From Escherichia coli (GTDB lineage: Bacteria; Pseudomonadota; Gammaproteobacteria; Enterobacterales; Enterobacteriaceae): DNA of 46,463 bases. A program made the translations under genes and the position numbers. The notes below the pieces were generated by a model, which had not been told where the DNA came from, did no database searches, and was given only the letters and a program-made list of their open reading frames with translations. The stretch lies in the NCBI RefSeq assembly GCF_003334255.1, contig NZ_QOWU01000044.1. One strand, written 5' to 3'. Numbering within the stretch: position 1 is the stretch's first letter; each line of letters starts with the position of its first letter. Below, one piece after another: positions 1-46,329 of this stretch.

Positions 1-77
1 AGCTGATAGAAACAGAAGCCACTGGAGCACCTCAAAAACACCATCATACACTAAATCAGTAAGTTGGCAGCATCACC
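1..77 (-). mobile_element. IS1 insertion sequence, terminal portion only (left inverted repeat plus start of insA region); element continues beyond window start
   Basis: Reverse complement of 1..77 reads GGTGATGCTGCCAACTTACTGATTTAGTGTATGATGGTGTTTTTGAGGTGCTCCAGTGGCTTCTGTTTCTATCAGCT, which matches the IS1 terminus as I remember it. The exact junction is ambiguous over ggtgat (71..77) because it overlaps ompF sequence. Confidence 0.85.
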
Positions 78-248
78 GTTTCCGCCGTAACTGTTTACAC
101 CATTGTCTTTAGAAAAATAATGCAGACCGACAGCTTTACCGTACAGATCTACTTTGTTGCCATCTTTGTTATAGATTTCTGCAGCGTTTGCAGTACCTGC
201 TACTAACAGAGCAGGGACGATCACTGCCAGAATATTGCGCTTCATCAT
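78..248 (-). pseudogene. ompF: ompF 5' fragment (signal peptide plus about 35 mature residues of outer membrane porin F), truncated by the IS1 insertion
   Basis: ORF 51..248 translates [47 protein letters not shown]..., the OmpF N-terminus. After GGNGD the frame runs into IS1 sequence (AANLLI then stop) instead of MTYARLGF. Confidence 0.85.
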
Positions 249-397
249 TATTTATTACCCTCATGGTTTTTTTTATGACACCTGCCACTGCCGTCAATAA
301 GTTCTGTCAATAAAAATTTACGGAACTATTGATGAGAGTTTGGTGTCTTTATGTGTCTGCAGGCATCTTTCCATTCAAACTAACGTTTCGCTACCGT

Positions 398-460
398 GAA
401 AGTGCTACAAAGATAAAGATTTGGTTTCAAAAAGAAAAAATATGTAACCAAAAGTAAAAT
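398..460 (-). promoter_or_regulatory. OmpR binding sites F1-F3 of the ompF promoter
   Basis: Reverse complement contains TTTACTTTTGGTTACATATT, TTTTCTTTTTGAAACCAAAT and CTTTATCTTTGTAGCACTTT, the tandem OmpR boxes upstream of ompF as I remember them. Confidence 0.75.
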
Positions 461-810
461 TTAAGGAACTTTGTGAACACCGTCATATTTCCATAGAAGC
501 GTGATGATATTTACAGCAATTTTTATCTATTTATATGATTTCCTTATATTTAAATTAACTAAACGGAAATTTTGTTTCTGATGGAAACTTTATCGACCTG
601 GCACTAAATCCTCGTTCAGACATCCAGAATGCCAAAAAATAGTATGAAAATTGTGCTATCAGCTAAGAAAAAACTAATCCGCAATAAGAATCCAGGTTAT
701 TTTTTGTGCGTAAATGTTGCAATGTAATATTCCATAACAGGATGATCGTTATGGCGGGGTTGCAAATAGATTGCTTGACTTAACAAACAGATAACTTGAC
801 AGAAAGGATA

Positions 811-835
811 AAAAAGAGCCAGCAGGCGCTGGCTC
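811..835 (-). terminator. Rho-independent terminator downstream of asnS
   Basis: Inverted repeat gagccagc / gctggctc with a 4-nt loop; the A-run at 811..815 is a U-run on the minus-strand transcript. Confidence 0.75.
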
Positions 836-849
836 TTTGAGGAAGAAAA

Positions 850-2250
850 TCAGAAGCTGGCGTTGCGCGGAGTACGTGGGAACGGAATCACATCACGCAC
901 GTTTTGCACGCCAGTTACGTAAGCAATCAGGCGTTCAAAACCAAGACCGAAACCTGAATGCGGAACAGTACCGTAGCGACGCAGATCGCGATACCACCAG
1001 TAATCTTCTTTATTCAGGCCCATTTCCAGCATACGCTCGTCCAGAACGTCCAGACGTTCTTCACGCTGGGAGCCACCAATGATCTCACCGATGCCCGGAG
1101 CCAGAACGTCCATAGCCGCAACGGTTTTACCGTCTTCGTTGAGGCGCATATAGAACGCTTTAATATCTTTCGGATAGTTTTTAACCACTACCGGTGCTTT
1201 AAAGTGTTCTTCCGCCAGATAACGCTCATGCTCAGAAGAGAGATCGACGCCCCAGTAAACCGGGTTTTCAAACTTCCTGCCGCAGTTTTCGAGAATGGTC
1301 ACTGCGTCGGTGTAATCCACCTGCGCGAAATCGGCCTCAATGAAGCGTTCCAGACGTGAAACGGCATCTTTATCTACGCGTTCAGCGAAGAATTTCATGT
1401 CGTCTGCGCGTTCTTCGAGAACCGCTTTGAAGACATATTTCAGCATGGCTTCAGCCAGACCCGCGATATCGTTCAGGTTAGCAAACGCCACTTCCGGCTC
1501 CAGCATCCAGAACTCCGCCAGGTGACGGCTGGTGTTGGAGTTTTCAGCACGGAAAGTCGGGCCGAAGGTATAAATTTTGGATAATGCGCAAGCGTAGGTT
1601 TCGCCGTTCAACTGGCCAGATACGGTCAGGAAAGACTCTTTACCAAAGAAGTCTTTGTCGAAATCCACTTTGCCCTGATCGTTACGCGGCAGATTTTCCA
1701 GATCCAGCGTAGAAACGCGGAACATTTCGCCAGCCCCTTCGGTATCAGACGCAGTAATCAGTGGCGTTGAAACCCAGAAGAATCCCTGCTCGTTAAAGAA
1801 GCGATGCAGCGCCTGCGCCAGCGTATGGCGAACGCGCGCGACGGCACCAATCAGGTTTGTGCGCGGACGCAGGTGAGCGACTTCACGCAGATACTCAATG
1901 CTGTGGCGTTTTGCCGCCATCGGGTAAGTGTCTGGATCTTCAACCCAACCAGCAACTTCAACCTTGCTGGCCTGAATTTCAAATTGTTGCCCCTGGCCCG
2001 GCGACGCCACGACTTTACCCGTCACAATGACCGAGCAACCGGTGGTCAGACGCAGGACGTCTTCATTGTAATTGGGCAGAGAATTATTGATGACAGCCTG
2101 TACAGGATCAAAGCAGGAACCGTCATAAACGGCGAGGAAGGAGATGCCAGCTTTTGAATCTCGGCGGGTACGTACCCATCCGCGTACGGTGACTTCGCTG
2201 TCAACGGCTACGCGGCCCTGGAGTACGTCGGCTACAGGCACAACGCTCAT
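850..2250 (-). CDS. asnS: Asparaginyl-tRNA synthetase
   Basis: Translation [25 protein letters not shown]...[11 protein letters not shown] (466 aa from the internal Met). The ORF-track start at 2295 is an upstream in-frame extension. Confidence 0.96.
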
Positions 2251-2418
2251 AATATTCTCTCTGTTAATAGTCGGAAAAAATAAACACTTGTCCACCCGTA
2301 AATGGGGGGATACCTATGTTACCTGGCATCTGCAATCAGACAAGCAGAATTCGCAAATGCAGCGAAAGATTTCGGAATTAAAGGTAAAAAAAGGGAGCCG
2401 ATTAGCTCCCTGATGATA

Positions 2419-3621
2419 TTAACTGGCTTTTTTAATATGCGGAAGGTCGAACGCTTTGCGCAGCGCCCGAACAAACGCTTTATCGTGGCAGATAGTTTTG
2501 CCAGGGCTGTCAGAAAGTTTCGCCACCGGTTTACCGTTACACTCTACCAACTTAATCACAATATTCAGGGGTTTTACCTGGGGGATATCGCAGGTCAGGC
2601 GAGTCCCAATACCAAAACTTAATTGCACGCGGGAAGAGAAGTGGCGGTATAGCTCAACCGCTTTGCGTAAATCCAGATTGTCAGAGAAAACCAGCGTTTT
2701 ACTCTGTGGATCAATTCCCAGCTTTTCATAATGTGCAATGGCTTTTTCACCCCATTCAACCGGGTCGCCAGAGTCATGACGCAGGCCCTGATACCGACTA
2801 GCGAACTCGACACCGAAATCACGCAGGAAAGCATCCATAGTGATGCAGTCGGTTAATGCAATGCCAAGTTGGTCGGGATACTCTTCCAGCCAGGCAGCAA
2901 GTGCAGCTCGCTGGCTGTTGGCTAGATCCGGGCTGATTTGCTGATGTGCCTGGAACCATTCGTGTGCCTGTGTTCCCATCGGCGTGAGGGAAAGCCGACG
3001 CGCCAGATCGTAGTTGCTGGTGCCCACAAACCAGGATTCCTGTTGCAGACGCTTAACGATGGTTTCTTGTACTTCGCGAGAAAAACGGCGACGGGTGCCA
3101 AAATCCATCAGATGGAAGCGCGACATATCAAGACCGGCGGTTAACGCCGAGAAGTCGACTAATTTGCTTTCCAGCGTGTCGAGGGCTTGCGCAACGTCGG
3201 CCTGCGGTGAGCGATAGCGATGTACCATTTCACTGATAACCGCCAGCAAAGGAACTTCCCAGAGGATGACTTCACGCCACGGGCCGCTTAAACGAATATC
3301 CAGCTTGCCATTATCGTTGGACACGGTGACTTGTTCCGGGTTAAAGCGGAACTCGCGTAACCAGTTAAGATAGTCGGCCTTAAAGAAAGGCAGGGCAGAA
3401 AGCCACTGATATTCATCATCCTGCAGGCGCAGGTGCTGCATCGCCTGAACCTGTTCACGAATAGCATCGGCATAAATACCCAGCAGATCGTCACCTCGGC
3501 AACGAAACTCCGCCGCGACATGCACATCGTAATAGTGATGAAACACGGCTTGCTGCATATGCAACTTATAAGCATCTGTATCCAGCAACGAGTGCAGAAC
3601 AGGAGAAGCGAATTGTGTCAT
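2419..3621 (-). CDS. pncB: Nicotinate phosphoribosyltransferase
   Basis: Translation [31 protein letters not shown]... (400 aa); true start is the internal Met of the 416-aa track ORF. Confidence 0.95.
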
Positions 3622-3650
3622 AGGTGCGCAGTAGCGTCCTCGTACAGGAG

Positions 3651-3668
3651 CGTTTAGTACAATAAACA
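3651..3668 (-). promoter_or_regulatory. Candidate NadR operator in the pncB promoter
   Basis: Inverted repeat cGTTTA-gtacaa-TAAACA lies 30-47 bp upstream of the pncB start. This resembles the TGTTTA-N6-TAAACA NAD box as I recall it; recognised from memory only. Confidence 0.45.
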
Positions 3669-3886
3669 TCTTCAGGAACTGCTGGAGTATACCTTGTTTC
3701 GCAATTTATTGAACCCCGATCACACCATATGCCACCTTTCTGGTCGATGGCATTACGCGGTGTATGTTATAAAAATGTAGCAATAAAGGCGTTTGTACCT
3801 GAAAAGATGAAGATTCTGCATAGCGCGATTTACGCAACAGGAATAGACTGAACACCAGACTCTATAAAAGATGCTAAAGGTTATTT

Positions 3887-6499
3887 ATGACTCAACAGCC
3901 ACAAGCCAAATACCGTCACGATTATCGTGCGCCGGATTACCAGATTACTGATATTGACTTGACCTTTGACCTCGACGCGCAAAAGACGGTCGTTACCGCG
4001 GTCAGCCAGGCTGTCCGTCATGGTGCATCAGATGCTCCCCTTCGTCTCAACGGCGAAGACCTCAAACTGGTTTCTGTTCATATTAATGATGAGCCGTGGA
4101 CCGCCTGGAAAGAAGAAGAGGGCGCACTGGTTATCAGTAATTTGCCGGAGCGTTTTACGCTTAAGATCATTAATGAAATAAGCCCGGCGGCGAATACCGC
4201 GCTGGAAGGGCTTTATCAGTCAGGCGATGCGCTTTGCACCCAGTGTGAAGCCGAAGGTTTCCGCCATATTACGTATTATCTCGACCGCCCGGACGTGCTG
4301 GCGCGTTTTACCACCAAAATTATTGCCGATAAAATCAAATATCCCTTCCTGCTTTCCAATGGTAACCGCGTTGCGCAAGGCGAACTGGAAAACGGACGCC
4401 ATTGGGTACAGTGGCAGGACCCGTTCCCGAAACCGTGCTACCTGTTTGCGCTGGTGGCAGGCGACTTTGATGTACTGCGCGATACCTTTACCACGCGTTC
4501 TGGTCGCGAAGTAGCACTGGAGCTGTACGTCGATCGCGGCAACCTTGATCGCGCGCCGTGGGCGATGACCTCGCTGAAAAACTCCATGAAATGGGATGAA
4601 GAACGCTTTGGCCTGGAGTATGACCTCGACATCTATATGATCGTCGCGGTGGATTTCTTCAATATGGGCGCAATGGAGAATAAGGGGCTGAATATCTTTA
4701 ACTCCAAATATGTGCTGGCCCGCACCGACACCGCCACCGACAAAGATTACCTCGATATTGAACGCGTTATCGGCCATGAATATTTCCATAACTGGACCGG
4801 TAACCGAGTGACCTGTCGCGACTGGTTCCAGCTCAGCCTGAAAGAAGGTTTAACCGTCTTCCGCGATCAGGAGTTCAGCTCTGACCTTGGTTCCCGCGCA
4901 GTTAACCGCATCAATAATGTACGCACCATGCGCGGATTGCAGTTTGCAGAAGACGCCAGCCCGATGGCGCACCCGATCCGCCCGGATATGGTCATTGAGA
5001 TGAACAACTTCTACACCCTGACCGTTTACGAGAAGGGCGCGGAAGTGATTCGCATGATCCACACCCTGCTTGGCGAAGAAAACTTCCAGAAAGGGATGCA
5101 GCTTTATTTCGAGCGTCATGATGGTAGTGCAGCGACCTGTGACGACTTTGTGCAGGCGATGGAAGATGCGTCGAATGTCGATCTCTCCCATTTCCGCGGT
5201 TGGTACAGCCAGTCCGGTACACCGATTGTGACCGTCAAAGACGACTACAATCCGGAAACCGAGCAGTACACCCTGACCATCAGCCAGCGCACGCCAGCCA
5301 CGCCGGATCAGGCAGAAAAACAGCCGCTGCATATTCCGTTTGCCATCGAACTGTATGATAACGAAGGCAAAGTGATCCCGTTGCAGAAAGGCGGTCATCC
5401 GGTGAATTCCGTGCTGAACGTCACTCAGGCGGAACAGACCTTTGTCTTTGATAATGTCTACTTCCAGCCGGTGCCTGCGCTGCTGTGCGAATTCTCTGCG
5501 CCAGTGAAACTGGAATATAAGTGGAGCGATCAGCAACTGACCTTCCTGATGCGTCATGCGCGTAATGATTTCTCCCGTTGGGATGCGGCGCAAAGTTTGC
5601 TGGCAACCTACATCAAGCTGAACGTCGCCCGTCATCAGCAAGGGCAGCCGCTGTCTCTGCCGGTGCATGTGGCCGACGCCTTCCGCGCGGTGCTGCTCGA
5701 TGAGAAGATTGACCCGGCACTGGCGGCAGAAATTCTGACTCTGCCATCCGTCAATGAAATGGCTGAACTGTTCGATATCATCGACCCGATTGCTATTGCC
5801 GAAGTACGCGAAGCACTCACTCGTACTCTGGCGACTGAACTGGCGGATGAGCTGCTGGCTATTTACAACGCGAATTACCAGAGCGAGTACCGCGTTGAGC
5901 ATGAAGATATTGCAAAACGCACTCTGCGTAATGCCTGTCTGCGCTTCCTTGCTTTTGGTGAAACGCATCTGGCTGATGTGCTGGTGAGCAAGCAGTTCCA
6001 TGAAGCGAACAATATGACCGATGCGCTGGCGGCGCTTTCTGCGGCGGTTGCCGCACAGCTGCCATGCCGTGACGCGCTGATGCAGGAGTACGACGACAAG
6101 TGGCATCAGGATGGTCTGGTGATGGATAAATGGTTTATCCTGCAAGCCACCAGCCCGGCGGCGAATGTGCTGGAGACGGTACGTGGTCTGTTGCAGCATC
6201 GCTCATTTACCATGAGCAACCCGAACCGTATTCGTTCGTTGATTGGCGCGTTTGCGGGCAGCAACCCGGCAGCGTTCCATGCCGACGATGGCAGTGGTTA
6301 CCAGTTCCTGGTGGAAATGCTTACCGACCTCAACAGCCGTAACCCGCAGGTGGCTTCACGTCTGATTGAACCGCTGATTCGCCTGAAACGTTACGATGCC
6401 AAACGTCAGGAGAAAATGCGCGCGGCGCTGGAGCAGTTGAAAGGGCTGGAAAATCTCTCTGGCGATCTGTACGAGAAGATAACTAAAGCACTGGCTTGA
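3887..6499 (+). CDS. pepN: Aminopeptidase N
   Basis: 870-aa ORF beginning MTQQPQAKYRHDYRAPDYQITDIDLTFDL, containing the HEYFHNWTG zinc-binding motif. Confidence 0.97.
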   Translation: MTQQPQAKYRHDYRAPDYQITDIDLTFDLDAQKTVVTAVSQAVRHGASDAPLRLNGEDLKLVSVHINDEPWTAWKEEEGALVISNLPERFTLKIINEISPAANTALEGLYQSGDALCTQCEAEGFRHITYYLDRPDVLARFTTKIIADKIKYPFLLSNGNRVAQGELENGRHWVQWQDPFPKPCYLFALVAGDFDVLRDTFTTRSGREVALELYVDRGNLDRAPWAMTSLKNSMKWDEERFGLEYDLDIYMIVAVDFFNMGAMENKGLNIFNSKYVLARTDTATDKDYLDIERVIGHEYFHNWTGNRVTCRDWFQLSLKEGLTVFRDQEFSSDLGSRAVNRINNVRTMRGLQFAEDASPMAHPIRPDMVIEMNNFYTLTVYEKGAEVIRMIHTLLGEENFQKGMQLYFERHDGSAATCDDFVQAMEDASNVDLSHFRGWYSQSGTPIVTVKDDYNPETEQYTLTISQRTPATPDQAEKQPLHIPFAIELYDNEGKVIPLQKGGHPVNSVLNVTQAEQTFVFDNVYFQPVPALLCEFSAPVKLEYKWSDQQLTFLMRHARNDFSRWDAAQSLLATYIKLNVARHQQGQPLSLPVHVADAFRAVLLDEKIDPALAAEILTLPSVNEMAELFDIIDPIAIAEVREALTRTLATELADELLAIYNANYQSEYRVEHEDIAKRTLRNACLRFLAFGETHLADVLVSKQFHEANNMTDALAALSAAVAAQLPCRDALMQEYDDKWHQDGLVMDKWFILQATSPAANVLETVRGLLQHRSFTMSNPNRIRSLIGAFAGSNPAAFHADDGSGYQFLVEMLTDLNSRNPQVASRLIEPLIRLKRYDAKRQEKMRAALEQLKGLENLSGDLYEKITKALA

Positions 6500-6506
6500 T
6501 AAATAA

Positions 6507-6536
6507 CCGAATGGCGGCAATAGCGCCGCCATTCGG
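6507..6536. terminator. Perfect 12-bp stem hairpin between convergent pepN and ssuB; likely bidirectional terminator
   Basis: ccgaatggcggc-aatagc-gccgccattcgg. The flanking T-run is weak and lies mainly on the minus-strand side. Confidence 0.5.
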
Positions 6537-6541
6537 GGAAT

Positions 6542-7309
6542 TTACCCCTGTTTTCTCAGGCGAGTTTCAGATTCACCACGTTGCATCACCCGTTGCAACA
6601 CCTCCGCTTCCAGCTCCGCTAATCGCACCGACCCTAATCGACGCGGACGGGGGATATCCACTGTCAAATCCAGACCAATTTTTCCCTCTTCAATTAACAG
6701 CACCCGGTCAGCCATCGCTACCGCTTCGCTCACATCATGCGTCACCAACAGTACGGTAAAGCCGTGCTCCTGCCAAAGTGACACAATCAAATCCTGCATC
6801 TCGAGTCGCGTTAAGGCGTCCAGCGCCCCGAGCGGTTCATCAAGCAACAATAATCCCGGTCGATGAATCAACGCTCTTGCCAGCGCCACTCGCTGTTTCT
6901 GCCCGCCAGAAAGTGCGGCAGGCCATTCCCCTGCGCGATTCTCCAGTCCTACCGCAGCCAACGCTCGACGTGCGGCATCGCGCCACTGGCCTTTAAGGCC
7001 TAACCCAACGTTATCAATCACCGATTTCCACGGTAGCAGACGCGCATCCTGAAACATCATTCGCGTGTCTTCCTGAATTTCAGCCAGCGGTGTGGTGCCC
7101 GCTAACACATCGCCTGCGGTTGGCGTTTCCAGACCTGCCAGCAGGCGCAGCAGGGTACTTTTGCCACCACCGCTGCGGCCCACCACCGCCACAAACTGAC
7201 CTGCCGGAATATGTAAATCCAGTTGGTTCAGGACGATATTTTCCGCGTAATGTTTGCTTACTGCATTGAGCAACAATGGCGTGCCCTGGTTCAGACGAGC
7301 AGTATTCAT
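6542..7309 (-). CDS. ssuB: Aliphatic sulfonate ABC transporter ATP-binding protein
   Basis: 255 aa with Walker [10 protein letters not shown] and ABC signature LSGGQKQR; sits in the ssu operon context. Confidence 0.95.
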
Positions 7310-8097
7310 ACCGTGGCCTCCTTCAAATGATAAGCCGGGTTCCAGCGCAACCAGAGGCGCTCTAACAGCTGCGCGCTGACGTCAGCCAGTTTGCCGAGCA
7401 GGGCGTAAAGAATAATAGCGACTACCACCACGTCCGTTTGCAAAAACTCCCGCGCATTCATCGCCAGATAACCAATGCCTGAATTGGCAGAAATGGTTTC
7501 GGCAACAATCAGCGTCAGCCACATCAGGCCCAACGCAAAACGCACGCCGACCATAATTGAGGGCAGGGCACCAGGCAGGATCACATGGATAAACAGCGGT
7601 ATGCCGGATAATCCATAGCTACGCGCCATCTCCACCAACCCGCGATCGATATTACGGATGCCATGCCAGGTGTTGATATAAATGGGGAATAGCGTACCGA
7701 GCGCCACCAGAAAGATTTTTGCGGATTCATCAATGCCAAACCACAAAATCACCAGCGGGATCAGCGCCAGATGCGGCACGTTGCGCAACATCTGAATTGA
7801 GGTATCCAGCAGCCGTTCTCCCCAGCGAGATAGCCCGCTAATCAGTCCCAAAATCAACCCCAGCGATCCGCCAATTGAAAAGCCAATCAGCGCCCGCCAG
7901 GAGCTGATCGCCAGATGCTGCCACAGTTCGCCGCTGGCGGAGAGCGTCCAGAACGCCGTCACCACTCCTTCCGGTGAAGGCAAAATACGCGTCGACAGCC
8001 AGCCAACCGAGGAGGCCAGTTGCCACACCGCCACGATGCCCACCGGTAAAAACCAGGGGGCAACGCGCAATAACCACTTCTTCACTGGCGTTGCCAT
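7306..8097 (-). CDS. ssuC: Aliphatic sulfonate ABC transporter permease
   Basis: Hydrophobic permease; start taken as [11 protein letters not shown] (263 aa); 4-bp overlap with ssuB. Confidence 0.92.
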
Positions 8098-8107
8098 TAT
8101 TTCTTCC

Positions 8108-9253
8108 TTAGCTTTGCGCGACTTTACGGGGGATAAAATCATTCGCCACCGCTTCGCCTTGCGGATTCAGCGGCTGCGGCTGGGGAATTTCCGGGATGGC
8201 GACATCCAGAAGCGGGAACAGCAACTCGCCAACCCGATACGCTTCTTCCAGATGCGGATAGCCCGAAAGCACAAAACTGTCGATGCCAAGCGCGGCATAT
8301 TCGTTGATTCGCGCAGCGACCGTAGGACCATCGCCCACCAGCGCCGTCCCGGCACCGCCGCGCACTAAGCCAACGCCCGCCCATAAATTGGGGCTGATCT
8401 CCAGATTGTCGCGCTTGCCGTTATGTAACGCCGCCATTCGCTGTTGCCCTACGGAATCCGTCCGGGCGAATGCGGCCTGTGCTTTGGCGATAGTTTCATC
8501 ATCAAGATGCGAGATTAACCGCTCGGCGGCCTGCCACGCTTCGTCGTTAGTTTCACGAACAATCACATGCAGACGAATACCGAAACGAATTTTGCGTCCA
8601 TGCGCGGCAGCTTTCGCCCGCACTTGTTCGATTTTCTCTTTAACCAGTTCCGGCGGTTCGCCCCAGGTGAGGTAGAGATCAACCTGTTCTGCCGCCAGCT
8701 CCTGGGCGACATCTGACGATCCGCCAAAGTAAAGTGGCGGATACGGCTGTTGAATCGCCGGGAAGAGCAGTTTTGCTCCGCGCACATGAATATGTTTACC
8801 GTTGAAATCGACGGTTTCTCTCTGCAATAAACGCCGCCAGACCTGGGTAAATTCCGCCGAGGCTTCGTAGCGCTCGCTATGATCAAGGAACACTCCGTCG
8901 CCTGCCAGCTCTTGTGGATCGCTGCCTGTGACCAGGTTAAACAACGCACGTCCATTTGAGAGACGGTCAAGCGTGGCGGCCTGGCGGGCGGCAACGGTAG
9001 GTGAGGTTACGCTGGGACGCAGGGCGACAAGAAACTTCAGCCGCTGCGTCACCGGGATCATCGATGCGGCAACCAGCCACGCATCTTCGCAGGAGCGCCC
9101 CGTTGGAATTAGCACACCGGTATAGCCAAGACGATCCGCCGCTTGCGCAATTTGTTGCAGATAACCGTGATCAACCGGGCGTGAACCTTCTTCCGTTCCC
9201 AGATAATGCCCGTCACCGTGGGTCGGTAAAAACCAGAACATATTCAGACTCAT
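8108..9253 (-). CDS. ssuD: FMNH2-dependent alkanesulfonate monooxygenase
   Basis: 381 aa, [23 protein letters not shown]...; luciferase-like monooxygenase family. Confidence 0.96.
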
Positions 9254-10209
9254 AATTGTTTTCCTTCCAGTTGAGTGGGCTGCCAGATGCGCTGGCGAAT
9301 ATCGACTTTTTTCGGCACCAGACGATTTTCATAAAACAGATCTGCCGTTTGCTGCTGTAAGGCGGCAACCTCGGCGTTAACCGGTTTGATGGTGGTAGGA
9401 GGGCGATGATCTAAGTAAGAGGCAATCACCGGTGCCGGTAAGCCCATCGTTTTTGCCAGTAAAGCGATGCTTTGCTCGCGCTGGCTGCGGGTTAACGCAT
9501 CGGCCTCACTAAAGGTTGCCAGTACGCCCTGAATAAAAGCGCCGTTTTTTTCTGCATAGGGACGAGCTGCCAGATAAAACGATCCAGTTTGATTGAGATC
9601 GGTGCCGTCTTTCAGCACCCGCACGCCGCCCTGTAATAATGCAGCAGAGTAGTAGGGATCCCAGATAGCCCAGGCGTCAACGTTACCTTGCTGGAACGCG
9701 GCGCGGGCATCAGCGGGCGTCAGGTAAGTGGGTTGGATATCGGTAAACTTAAGTCCGGCCTGACGCAGTGCACGCAGTAAAAGGTTGTGTGAACTGGAAC
9801 CTTTCTGAAAGGCAACTTTGTGACCTTTAAGATCGGCTACGGTTTTGATCGGGCTGTTTTCTGCCACCAGAATCACTTCGGCTTTGGGCTTCGGTGGCTC
9901 GACGCCCACGTACACCAAATCAGCCCCGGCAGCCTGGGCAAAGATTGGCGGAATATCCCCGGTACTGCCGAGATCAATACTGCCAACGTTTAACGCTTCC
10001 AACATTTGCGGACCCGCGGGGAACTCCACCCAGGAGATTTTTGATTCCGGATAGCGTTTTTCCAGTAACTGGTGGCTTTTTGCCAGCACCATACCAATAC
10101 TGCCTTTCTGATAGCCTATACGTAACGCTTCAGGCGAGGATTCTGCAGCAACCGCAAAAGTAGAGACGCTAAGCAATCCCGCCAGCGCCAGTTTAATGAT
10201 GTTACGCAT
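9250..10209 (-). CDS. ssuA: Aliphatic sulfonate periplasmic binding protein
   Basis: Start at [22 protein letters not shown] (signal peptide), 319 aa; its start overlaps the ssuE stop by 8 nt. Confidence 0.93.
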
Positions 10210-10777
10210 GGGCATTACCTCGCAGAGACAGAAGGTCAGGAACCTGAACATCGCGGCGGTGCAATGCCTGCCAGAAAGTTTCTAGCGCGGTATCAAGACG
10301 GGTTTGCAGATTTGGCGTGAACTGGGGTCTGTGATGGTAATCAATTACTTGTGAGTCATCGGCAAACACGCCGTGCAGGATCTCCTGAGCTTTCAGTGCG
10401 CTTAAAACTGGTTTAAGGGCATAATCGACCGCCAGCAGATGGGCCACGGTACCGCCCGTCGCCAGCGGTAGCACCACTTTGCCTTGCAAAGCGCGTTCTG
10501 GCAGCAGGTCGAGCAGGGTTTTCAACGCACCGGAATAGGCGGCTTTATACACAGGCGTGGCGACAATCAGCCCATCGGCCTGTTGCAGCTGTTCGGTGAA
10601 GGTCTTGAGTGCCGGACTATCGAAACGAGCATAAAGTAGATCTTCCGGGGCGAAGTTTTGCAGATTCCAGTGATAAACCTCTACATCCAGGCCATTTAGT
10701 TTTTCCCGCGCATATTCCAGCAAGGAGCTGGAGCGAGAAGGAAAGCGAGGACTACCCGCCAGGGTGATGACACGCAT
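10202..10777 (-). CDS. ssuE: NADPH-dependent FMN reductase
   Basis: 191 aa, MRVITLAGSPRFPSRSSSLLEYAREKL...; first gene of ssuEADCB. Confidence 0.95.
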   Translation of the reverse strand: MRVITLAGSPRFPSRSSSLLEYAREKLNGLDVEVYHWNLQNFAPEDLLYARFDSPALKTFTEQLQQADGLIVATPVYKAAYSGALKTLLDLLPERALQGKVVLPLATGGTVAHLLAVDYALKPVLSALKAQEILHGVFADDSQVIDYHHRPQFTPNLQTRLDTALETFWQALHRRDVQVPDLLSLRGNAHA

Positions 10778-44888: not shown

Positions 44889-44948
44889 TGGCGGAAGCGC
44901 AGAGATTCGAACTCTGGAACCCTTTCGGGTCGCCGGTTTTCAAGACCG
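44889..44948 (-). tRNA. serT: tRNA-Ser(UGA) 3'-terminal 60-nt fragment; not a complete tRNA (5' acceptor, D-arm and half the anticodon stem are missing); prophage attachment core remnant
   Basis: Reverse complement CGGTCTTGAAAACCGGCGACCCGAAAGGGTTCCAGAGTTCGAATCTCTGCGCTTCCGCCA matches the 3' part of serT. Upstream sequence (44949 onward) has no segment able to pair with the acceptor 3' strand. Confidence 0.85.
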
Positions 44949-45089
44949 AAGAAAAACAAATGAAAATCAGTGTAATACGTGAATCTGCTGAAAATTTAAT
45001 TAAATTTAACACCAAGAAAAATCAAGGTGTTAGGAAGTTGCTCATAGCTAGTATACCAAGTATTTTTGCCAGAAAATTTTCTGTATTGC

Positions 45090-46109
45090 CTACTTGCTAA
45101 CCACGAGCGGCAGATCCAGTGTTGGTGTGATTTTTGTTTTACGATCGTAAATCAACACCTGATTTTCTGTTTTATGCCCGCTGAAAATTTGTTTGTCGCG
45201 ACTGCTGCCTTCGTAATCTGAGATCCCCTTGGCTTTTATGTCGTGAAAATTGCACCCGAACGGAACGCCAACTTTTTGCTCGGCTGAGCGTTTAGCCTGA
45301 TTCCACCAGTTGTTCAGCGTTTTAGCTATGACTTTCCCGCCTTTGGTTGTATTGATCACATATTCGCATGTACAGGAAGATACATTTCGGGCTAACTGGA
45401 TCGCTGTACGTAATCGCGGTGACCATTCCTTGATTTGTTTGGTGCCGGTTTTGTTTTGCTCAATGTAGATCCCTTTATCCATAATATCCTGCCATTTCAA
45501 CTCAAGCACATCACCGAGCCTTGCCGCACAGAGATAGGAAATCTCCATTGCAATGCGTAACTGTGGAATTGCTTCCGCATATATCGCTGCATACTGTTCA
45601 TCGGTGATGTAAACAGTGCGGGCTTTAAGAGAGAATTTTCTGACTCCTTTACATGGGTTATTCTTCACGTATCCACGCTCATATCCCCACCCGTATACTC
45701 GACTCAGGCTTGCCAGTTCATGATTTGCCTGGGTCTTGCTCTCAAGCCCTCGTTTATCCATGAAAATTCTTACCTGCTCAGTTTTGACATTATCAGCAAG
45801 CACTTTTCCGAATACCATCAGCAACGCCTTCTGATGTTGTCGATAATCTTTTTGGGTTCGGGGGGCCAGTTCTGTAAATGCAGGGGAGTCCATAAACATG
45901 TGCCATAATTTAGCTACGGTCATTATGTTGTGGAGTTTTGCTTTTTCCAGTTCATAATTTTGCCAGACTTTAGCTACGCTGGTTTTCCGCACTCTTCCTA
46001 GCCCTATAGTTCTTGTACTTCCTTCTGGTTTCCACACGTAACTGTAACCATTCGATCTAACCCGCGGTGGCAGTACATTATCTTTTTTATTTTTTCTTGG
46101 TCTTCCCAT
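45090..46109 (-). CDS. int: Phage tyrosine integrase (lambda Int family)
   Basis: 339 aa; N-terminal MGRPRKNKKDNVLPPRV resembles the lambda Int arm-binding N-terminus; C-terminal region has an R...H..R...Y catalytic pattern (LGDVLELKW, HDIKAKG, SGHKTENQVLIYDR). Confidence 0.92.
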   Translation of the reverse strand: MGRPRKNKKDNVLPPRVRSNGYSYVWKPEGSTRTIGLGRVRKTSVAKVWQNYELEKAKLHNIMTVAKLWHMFMDSPAFTELAPRTQKDYRQHQKALLMVFGKVLADNVKTEQVRIFMDKRGLESKTQANHELASLSRVYGWGYERGYVKNNPCKGVRKFSLKARTVYITDEQYAAIYAEAIPQLRIAMEISYLCAARLGDVLELKWQDIMDKGIYIEQNKTGTKQIKEWSPRLRTAIQLARNVSSCTCEYVINTTKGGKVIAKTLNNWWNQAKRSAEQKVGVPFGCNFHDIKAKGISDYEGSSRDKQIFSGHKTENQVLIYDRKTKITPTLDLPLVVSK

Positions 46110-46329
46110 TGTTCAGTGCCTCAAAATCGGGTTCAGCAGAAACCAGTTCAGATGTTTTTGGCATCGTTGTCAGTCCGTGTGGAATATCCCTGCGTAGAAC
46201 TATTGGTTCGTTTTTAGGACCGATTACAAATGGGATGCCGTGCAGTCTTAACTGGTGTTGCTGTTTTGTGTATCGCTCGTATTTCGTGATCTCTTTAATC
46301 TCTGCTGGAGATAGAGTTAATTCGTACAT
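46087..46329 (-). CDS. xis: Excisionase-like protein
   Basis: 80 aa, MYELTLSPAEIKEI...NNGKTKKK; sits upstream of int and overlaps its start by 23 nt as in lambda xis-int; loosely lambda Xis-like at both termini. Confidence 0.65.
   Translation of the reverse strand: MYELTLSPAEIKEITKYERYTKQQHQLRLHGIPFVIGPKNEPIVLRRDIPHGLTTMPKTSELVSAEPDFEALNNGKTKKK

Follow-up and report, generated by a model that had tools for sequence, protein, structure and literature searches.

The window analysed here is a 46,463-nucleotide stretch of Escherichia coli DNA (contig NZ_QOWU01000044.1 of RefSeq assembly GCF_003334255.1), the left edge of which lies in the ompF locus. Three features, all on the minus strand, share its first 248 positions: the left end of an IS1 element (1..77), made up of the terminal inverted repeat GGTGATGCTGCCAACTTACTGAT, which starts at position 77, and the first seven codons of insA; a remnant of the porin gene ompF (78..248), holding codons 1-57 and assigned through its identity to intact ompF genes; and, spanning both, a chimeric 65-codon open reading frame (51..248) from the ORF list, in which the 57 ompF codons are followed by eight codons from the IS1 end. 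The remnant corresponds to the 22-residue signal peptide and 35 residues of the mature protein, and it belongs to an allele encoding aspartate at residue 48 and valine at residue 51 (D48/V51; precursor numbering is used throughout, the two positions being 26 and 29 in the mature protein).

On the same strand, the ompF stub is preceded by the ompF-asnS intergenic region (249..849), which comprises the promoter, 5' UTR and regulatory region of ompF in unaltered form, and which we take to hold the OmpR/IHF-regulated promoter established for K-12. Next to it lies asnS (850..2250, minus strand), encoding asparagine--tRNA ligase, which was delimited from the annotation of the identical sequence in strains G1/2 and B-1109 and which fixes the locus as ompF. 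The genes asnS, pncB and pepN adjoin the stub in K-12 order, a neighbourhood common to the window and to its relatives with an intact ompF. Within the interval between aspC and asnS that defines the ompF locus, the asnS side matches exactly, as does the intergenic region, while the aspC side lies beyond IS1, outside both the window and its source contig. As a side observation, the mechanical ORF of asnS (850..2295) has 481 codons from a GTG and is 15 codons longer upstream than the annotated 466-codon gene.

Several lines of evidence identify the element. The inverted repeat GGTGATGCTGCCAACTTACTGAT is followed by an insA start, a GTG at 22..20 whose translation reads VASVSIS; in annotated IS1 copies the transposase CDS begins 55 nt from the element end, and the insA start of the window occupies the equivalent position. 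A 39-mer of the IS1 end matches exactly at 39..77, where no match is expected by chance (0 expected), and the whole of 1..77 occurs verbatim within annotated IS1 copies of other E. coli genomes (loci L003, L004 and L005). The element has the same orientation as ompF and runs off the left edge of the window. An IS1 end at 1..77 directly abutting the ompF stub means that the window starts inside the IS1 that cut ompF.

The junction itself falls after ompF nt 171. Nucleotides 1-173 of the stub are identical to the intact, full-length ompF of strains HS, G1/2, B-1109 and CUVET16-394, and IS1 starts at the first mismatch; window bases 76-77 (GG) can be assigned either to ompF codon 58 or to IS1. 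Positions 72..77 read GGTGAT, the first six bases of the IS1 inverted repeat, where intact alleles have GGCGAC. The native residues Gly-Asp of codons 58-59 are thereby restored by coincidence, which masks the junction at the protein level. The peptide quoted in the first-pass annotation for 78..248 shows this effect: the interval encodes codons 1-57, and the trailing Gly-Asp comes from IS1 at 72..77 and lies outside it.

Beyond the junction, the 65-codon frame continues with GDAANLLI, the eight codons contributed by the IS1 end, and its stop lies within IS1. Because the frame runs only these eight codons into IS1 before stopping, the ompF stub was counted as a remnant. The complete 362-codon frame needed for the 16-strand barrel is absent, the ompF sequence stopping after nt 171, and 78..248 is hence, judged from its sequence, a remnant of the gene that presumably contributes no functional member to the Porin_1 family of general diffusion porins. 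With one junction visible, the lesion may be a simple insertion or an IS1-mediated deletion or rearrangement; a simple insertion is predicted to have generated a 9-bp target duplication, GGCGGAAAC, corresponding to ompF nt 163-171.

The stub was compared with the OmpF of K-12 (MG1655 b0929; P02931; structures such as 2OMF and 3HW9), which is the product of the same gene at the same locus and shares 55 of the 57 retained residues. The two residue changes reported in the first-pass annotation proved real: G48D, through a GGT to GAC change, and E51V, through GAA to GTA. The K-12 sequence given there was also accurate, since MG1655 b0929 has Gly48 and Glu51. K-12 OmpF carries, besides G48 and E51, M60 and V115, whereas the stub has D48 and V51. 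The solved OmpF structures among the matches listed are all of the K-12 type (GNGE), with no D48/V51 variant among them. At the nucleotide level, nt 1-171 differ from K-12 at ten positions, all within nt 120-171, which affect nine codons, seven silently and two by replacement.

Strains G1/2 and B-1109 are the nearest relatives of the window within the complete-genome collection, with 100.0% identity over window 850..20000 (about 19 kb), and both are annotated with a 362-codon porin OmpF. All 57 codons of the stub are identical to those of the annotated full-length OmpF genes of HS, G1/2 and B-1109. The identity to HS (WP_000977907.1) is base for base, D48 and V51 included, and that to G1/2 and B-1109 (WP_000977906.1) extends into the upstream promoter region, the 601 nt of 249..849 matching both strains exactly. 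A search for private changes against G1/2 and B-1109 in the 173 nt of coding sequence and the 601 nt upstream found none (0). The ompF genes of HS, G1/2 and B-1109 are full length (362 codons), whereas that of the window turns into IS1 after nt 171.

These comparisons bear directly on the two readings offered by the first-pass annotation, namely natural variation of the porin or early drift in a pseudogene. Under drift, G48D and E51V would have arisen under relaxed selection after IS1 had inactivated ompF, and the stub does differ from K-12 at two residues. However, the alignment with K-12 and other E. coli places the same residues in the functional proteins of intact relatives, which by that annotation's own measure refutes drift. 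No difference is found over 173 nt against functional ompF, whether of the nearest relatives or of distant strains, and the promoter region is likewise unchanged. Moreover, the changes from K-12 are clustered and mostly silent (seven of the nine changed codons), the opposite of random decay after inactivation, and 766 genomes have the same block within an annotated ompF. No drift has taken place in the stub, and we regard it as having next to no chance of being the source of the two residues.

That block was used to measure how widespread the allele is. A 58-nt segment of the window type, spanning both codons, is present in 766 of 5,426 complete E. coli genomes, in one copy each and on chromosomes, and all of the matches listed lie under an annotated ompF; the corresponding K-12-type segment is present in 4,099 of the 5,426. 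With the whole 171 nt as query, identity is bimodal, 767 records reaching at least 99% and the remainder, among the rows sampled, at most 95.7%. Roughly one E. coli strain in seven thus has the D48/V51 allele in an intact gene. HS and IAI39 are among the carriers, as are many isolates from humans, animals and water, and a wider protein collection contains two full-length D48/V51 proteins, one on at least 1000 contigs and the other on 693. Intact copies of the allele also carry Lys60. Together with its presence in the closest intact relatives, this frequency bears out the natural-variation half of the earlier reading. A third allele class, suggested by the approximately 550 genomes that match neither 58-mer, was considered and rejected: K-12-type variants, EcPF7 (GNGED) for example, account for these genomes, since megablast misses them when additional SNPs leave no exact 28-nt word.

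The distribution of the differences along the gene is informative in itself. Between K-12 and G1/2, ompF differs at 17 positions over its entire length, and 13 of the 17 fall within the 64 nt of nt 120-183; the probability of such clustering is about 2e-13 under an even spread and about 2e-10 when all window positions are allowed for. Clustered and mostly silent differences from K-12 are what a haplotype of old or imported origin leaves behind, and nt 120-183 accordingly reads, as far as the alignments can tell, as an old allelic patch or one imported by recombination, rather than as a set of new mutations. A scan for a possible donor with a degenerate 12-residue pattern, over a collection holding one genome per prokaryotic species and therefore uninformative on carriers within a species, returned 0 matches.

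Given the topology of OmpF, residues 48 and 51 would lie in or near loop L1. Such a placement, suggested in the first-pass annotation, fits a preprint that describes mosaic evolution of ompF and locates hypervariable regions in the extracellular loops, L1 among them (bioRxiv 10.1101/2021.09.21.461324). Like those hypervariable regions, the nt 120-183 patch is a short, sharply bounded cluster of differences in an extracellular-loop region that is common to unrelated strains, a likeness drawn by description and without matching of the numbering of the regions (bioRxiv 10.1101/2021.09.21.461324).

The surface position of the two residues also raises the possibility that they were lately selected in this lineage, for instance through escape from a phage, a colicin or antibodies, before the gene was lost. 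In favour of such a strain-specific adaptation, both residues belong to a part of the surface loops for which hypervariability has been reported (bioRxiv 10.1101/2021.09.21.461324) and porin loops have been described as being under diversifying pressure (bioRxiv 10.1101/2021.09.21.461324; PMC5056734). Yet the allele is not confined to the lineage, identical DNA being found in HS, IAI39, CUVET16-394 and many other strains, and the linked silent changes are typical of an imported or ancient haplotype rather than of new point mutations. Recent selection in the present strain is accordingly very improbable, though selection may have acted on the D48/V51 allele long ago.

Taken together, we interpret 78..248 as nt 1-171 of a widespread natural ompF allele, cut by a recent IS1 insertion after nt 171, and we give this reading a probability of roughly 95%. 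In the proposed sequence of events, D48 and V51 predate the insertion and form part of a mosaic patch of limited length (nt 120-183) in what is probably the surface-exposed region of loop L1; the patch is one of two main sequence types that segregate within E. coli. IS1 then inserted after nt 171, probably recently, and the stub is unchanged since the break. With promoter, ribosome-binding site and signal peptide kept, the locus could yield at most a 65-residue exported peptide and should form no 16-strand barrel; ompF::IS1 is thus a predicted null allele, with probable loss of OmpF. The selective causes usually behind such a loss would be reduced beta-lactam entry or escape from OmpF-dependent phages, colicins or CDI toxins.

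Since the junction was read at the end of a draft contig, an error of sequencing or assembly must be weighed for both the substitutions and the IS1 boundary. The window covers nearly all of a short-read draft contig (GCA_965136505.1 CBCRYS010000040.1, 46,550 bp), the end of which falls in a repeat. This contig is 100% identical to the window and begins 43 nt earlier, still in insA. However, the identical junction and 65-codon ORF recur in the independent assemblies ERR1948968 and SRR36319702, the latter from a different strain background, and the allele is found in hundreds of complete genomes, so that an artefact is scarcely credible. In ERR1948968, the flanks of the junction are 100% identical to the window.

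The 65-residue product itself is on record as CAM3068936.1 and CUK10187.1, and on contigs from GCA_965136505.1, ERR1948968 and SRR36319702. The far side of IS1 was sought on the contigs carrying the 65-codon ORF, and all of them end inside IS1; because a contig ends in such a repeat, the distal IS1 end, the target duplication and the rest of ompF lie out of view. An ompF::IS1 junction after nt 171 is absent from the 5,426 complete RefSeq E. coli genomes, in which the best matches have IS1 elsewhere in ompF or in its promoter; its occurrences are confined to draft assemblies and read sets. In nature ompF is broken repeatedly, in clinical as well as environmental E. coli. MB51 and isolateA also carry IS1 within the ompF coding sequence and in the same orientation, but after nt 149 and nt 498, respectively, rather than after nt 171, and in CUVET16-394 and others the element lies in the promoter, whereas in the window it lies in the coding sequence.

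The SRR36319702 read set combines the same junction and 65-codon ORF with flanks that are 97.7% identical to the window over 6.2 kb (window 49..6246); 142 aligned positions differ (136 mismatches plus gaps), the first of them at window 449. Here either IS1 inserted a second time, independently, at an identical base, or the null allele was transferred. More generally, its recurrence in a diverged background could result from a target preference of IS1, from recombinational transfer, or from chance combined with a search for exact products; looking up exact truncated products is a design that may by itself produce the coincidence of junctions. It is therefore rather unlikely, in our estimation, that the nt-171 site is a true insertion hot spot or that a ready-made ompF::IS1 null allele is spreading by recombination under antibiotic or phage pressure.

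Other lesions of the D48/V51 allele were encountered in the course of these searches. In GCA_964042055.1 and ERR4036171, the end of a Mu-like prophage (TGAAGCGGCGCACGAAAAACGCGAAA, followed by the com and mom genes) comes after ompF nt 177, from locus position 4178; in GCA_030474675.1, codon 60 is changed from AAA to a TAA stop. Both the prophage and the codon-60 lesions lie within six bases of the IS1 junction. A 59-residue stub (P0003) was considered as the same insertion in a complete chromosome and rejected, being accounted for by the prophage after nt 177, the K60 stop and plain contig ends. Likewise, the hot-spot conclusion that this stub might suggest was rejected, for a look-up of exact products selects events at that codon. 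At 90% identity, N-terminal OmpF stubs form a cluster of 179 distinct members of many lengths.

Knockouts of this kind have precedents in the literature. Insertions of IS1A and IS2, together with frameshifts, are common in ompF of carbapenem-resistant E. coli that lack a carbapenemase, and IS and frameshift knockouts of both ompF and ompC have been linked to carbapenem resistance without carbapenemase (PMC9601100). Mutants of ompF resist CDI toxins and colicin E5 (PMC5056734). The allele itself and the kind of lesion are both already known.

Other parts of the window, at a distance from ompF, showed features of their own. In the fimbrial subunit gene elfA (window 11133..11141), the run of adenines after the start codon is A6 in both the window and G1/2 and A7 in B-1109. 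The A6 form shifts the frame right after the ATG, leaving a possible start only at a downstream TTG (ORF 11147..11671), which would deprive the protein of its N-terminal end. Slippage in the homopolymer or a sequencing error seems the likely origin of the A6 run. A PyrD leader (RF02373, 97.9 bits) lies at 17964..18037, upstream of pyrD, and is the sole Rfam match at the gathering threshold in the window. Prediction of tRNA genes across the whole window returned none. Only the 3' 60 nt of serT are left (44889..44948), and K-12 homology ends there; beyond this remnant, the region 44889..46463 contains genes for a tyrosine integrase (45090..46109, minus strand), a DUF4224 protein and an exonuclease, and the region past 44948 is a prophage integrated into serT. 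This arrangement is shared with approximately 740 complete E. coli genomes.

For annotation, the consequence is that the stub should be labelled as ompF (D48/V51 allele) interrupted by IS1, and not as a drifting pseudogene. Automatic pipelines currently misname short 5' stubs of ompF as 'phosphoporin PhoE' or 'Outer membrane protein C' (locus L004, 3077..3226; CAM3068936.1 and EKT4178614.1), a naming artefact that affects truncated porin fragments. Because the surface loops of OmpF carry standing mosaic variation, the divergence of a porin fragment from K-12 is no evidence of decay. What stands out at this site is the IS1 knockout rather than the two residues, and its significance beyond annotation is small. 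For the isolate, the sequence points to a probable loss of OmpF, which commonly accompanies lower beta-lactam susceptibility and resistance to OmpF-dependent phages, colicins and CDI toxins.
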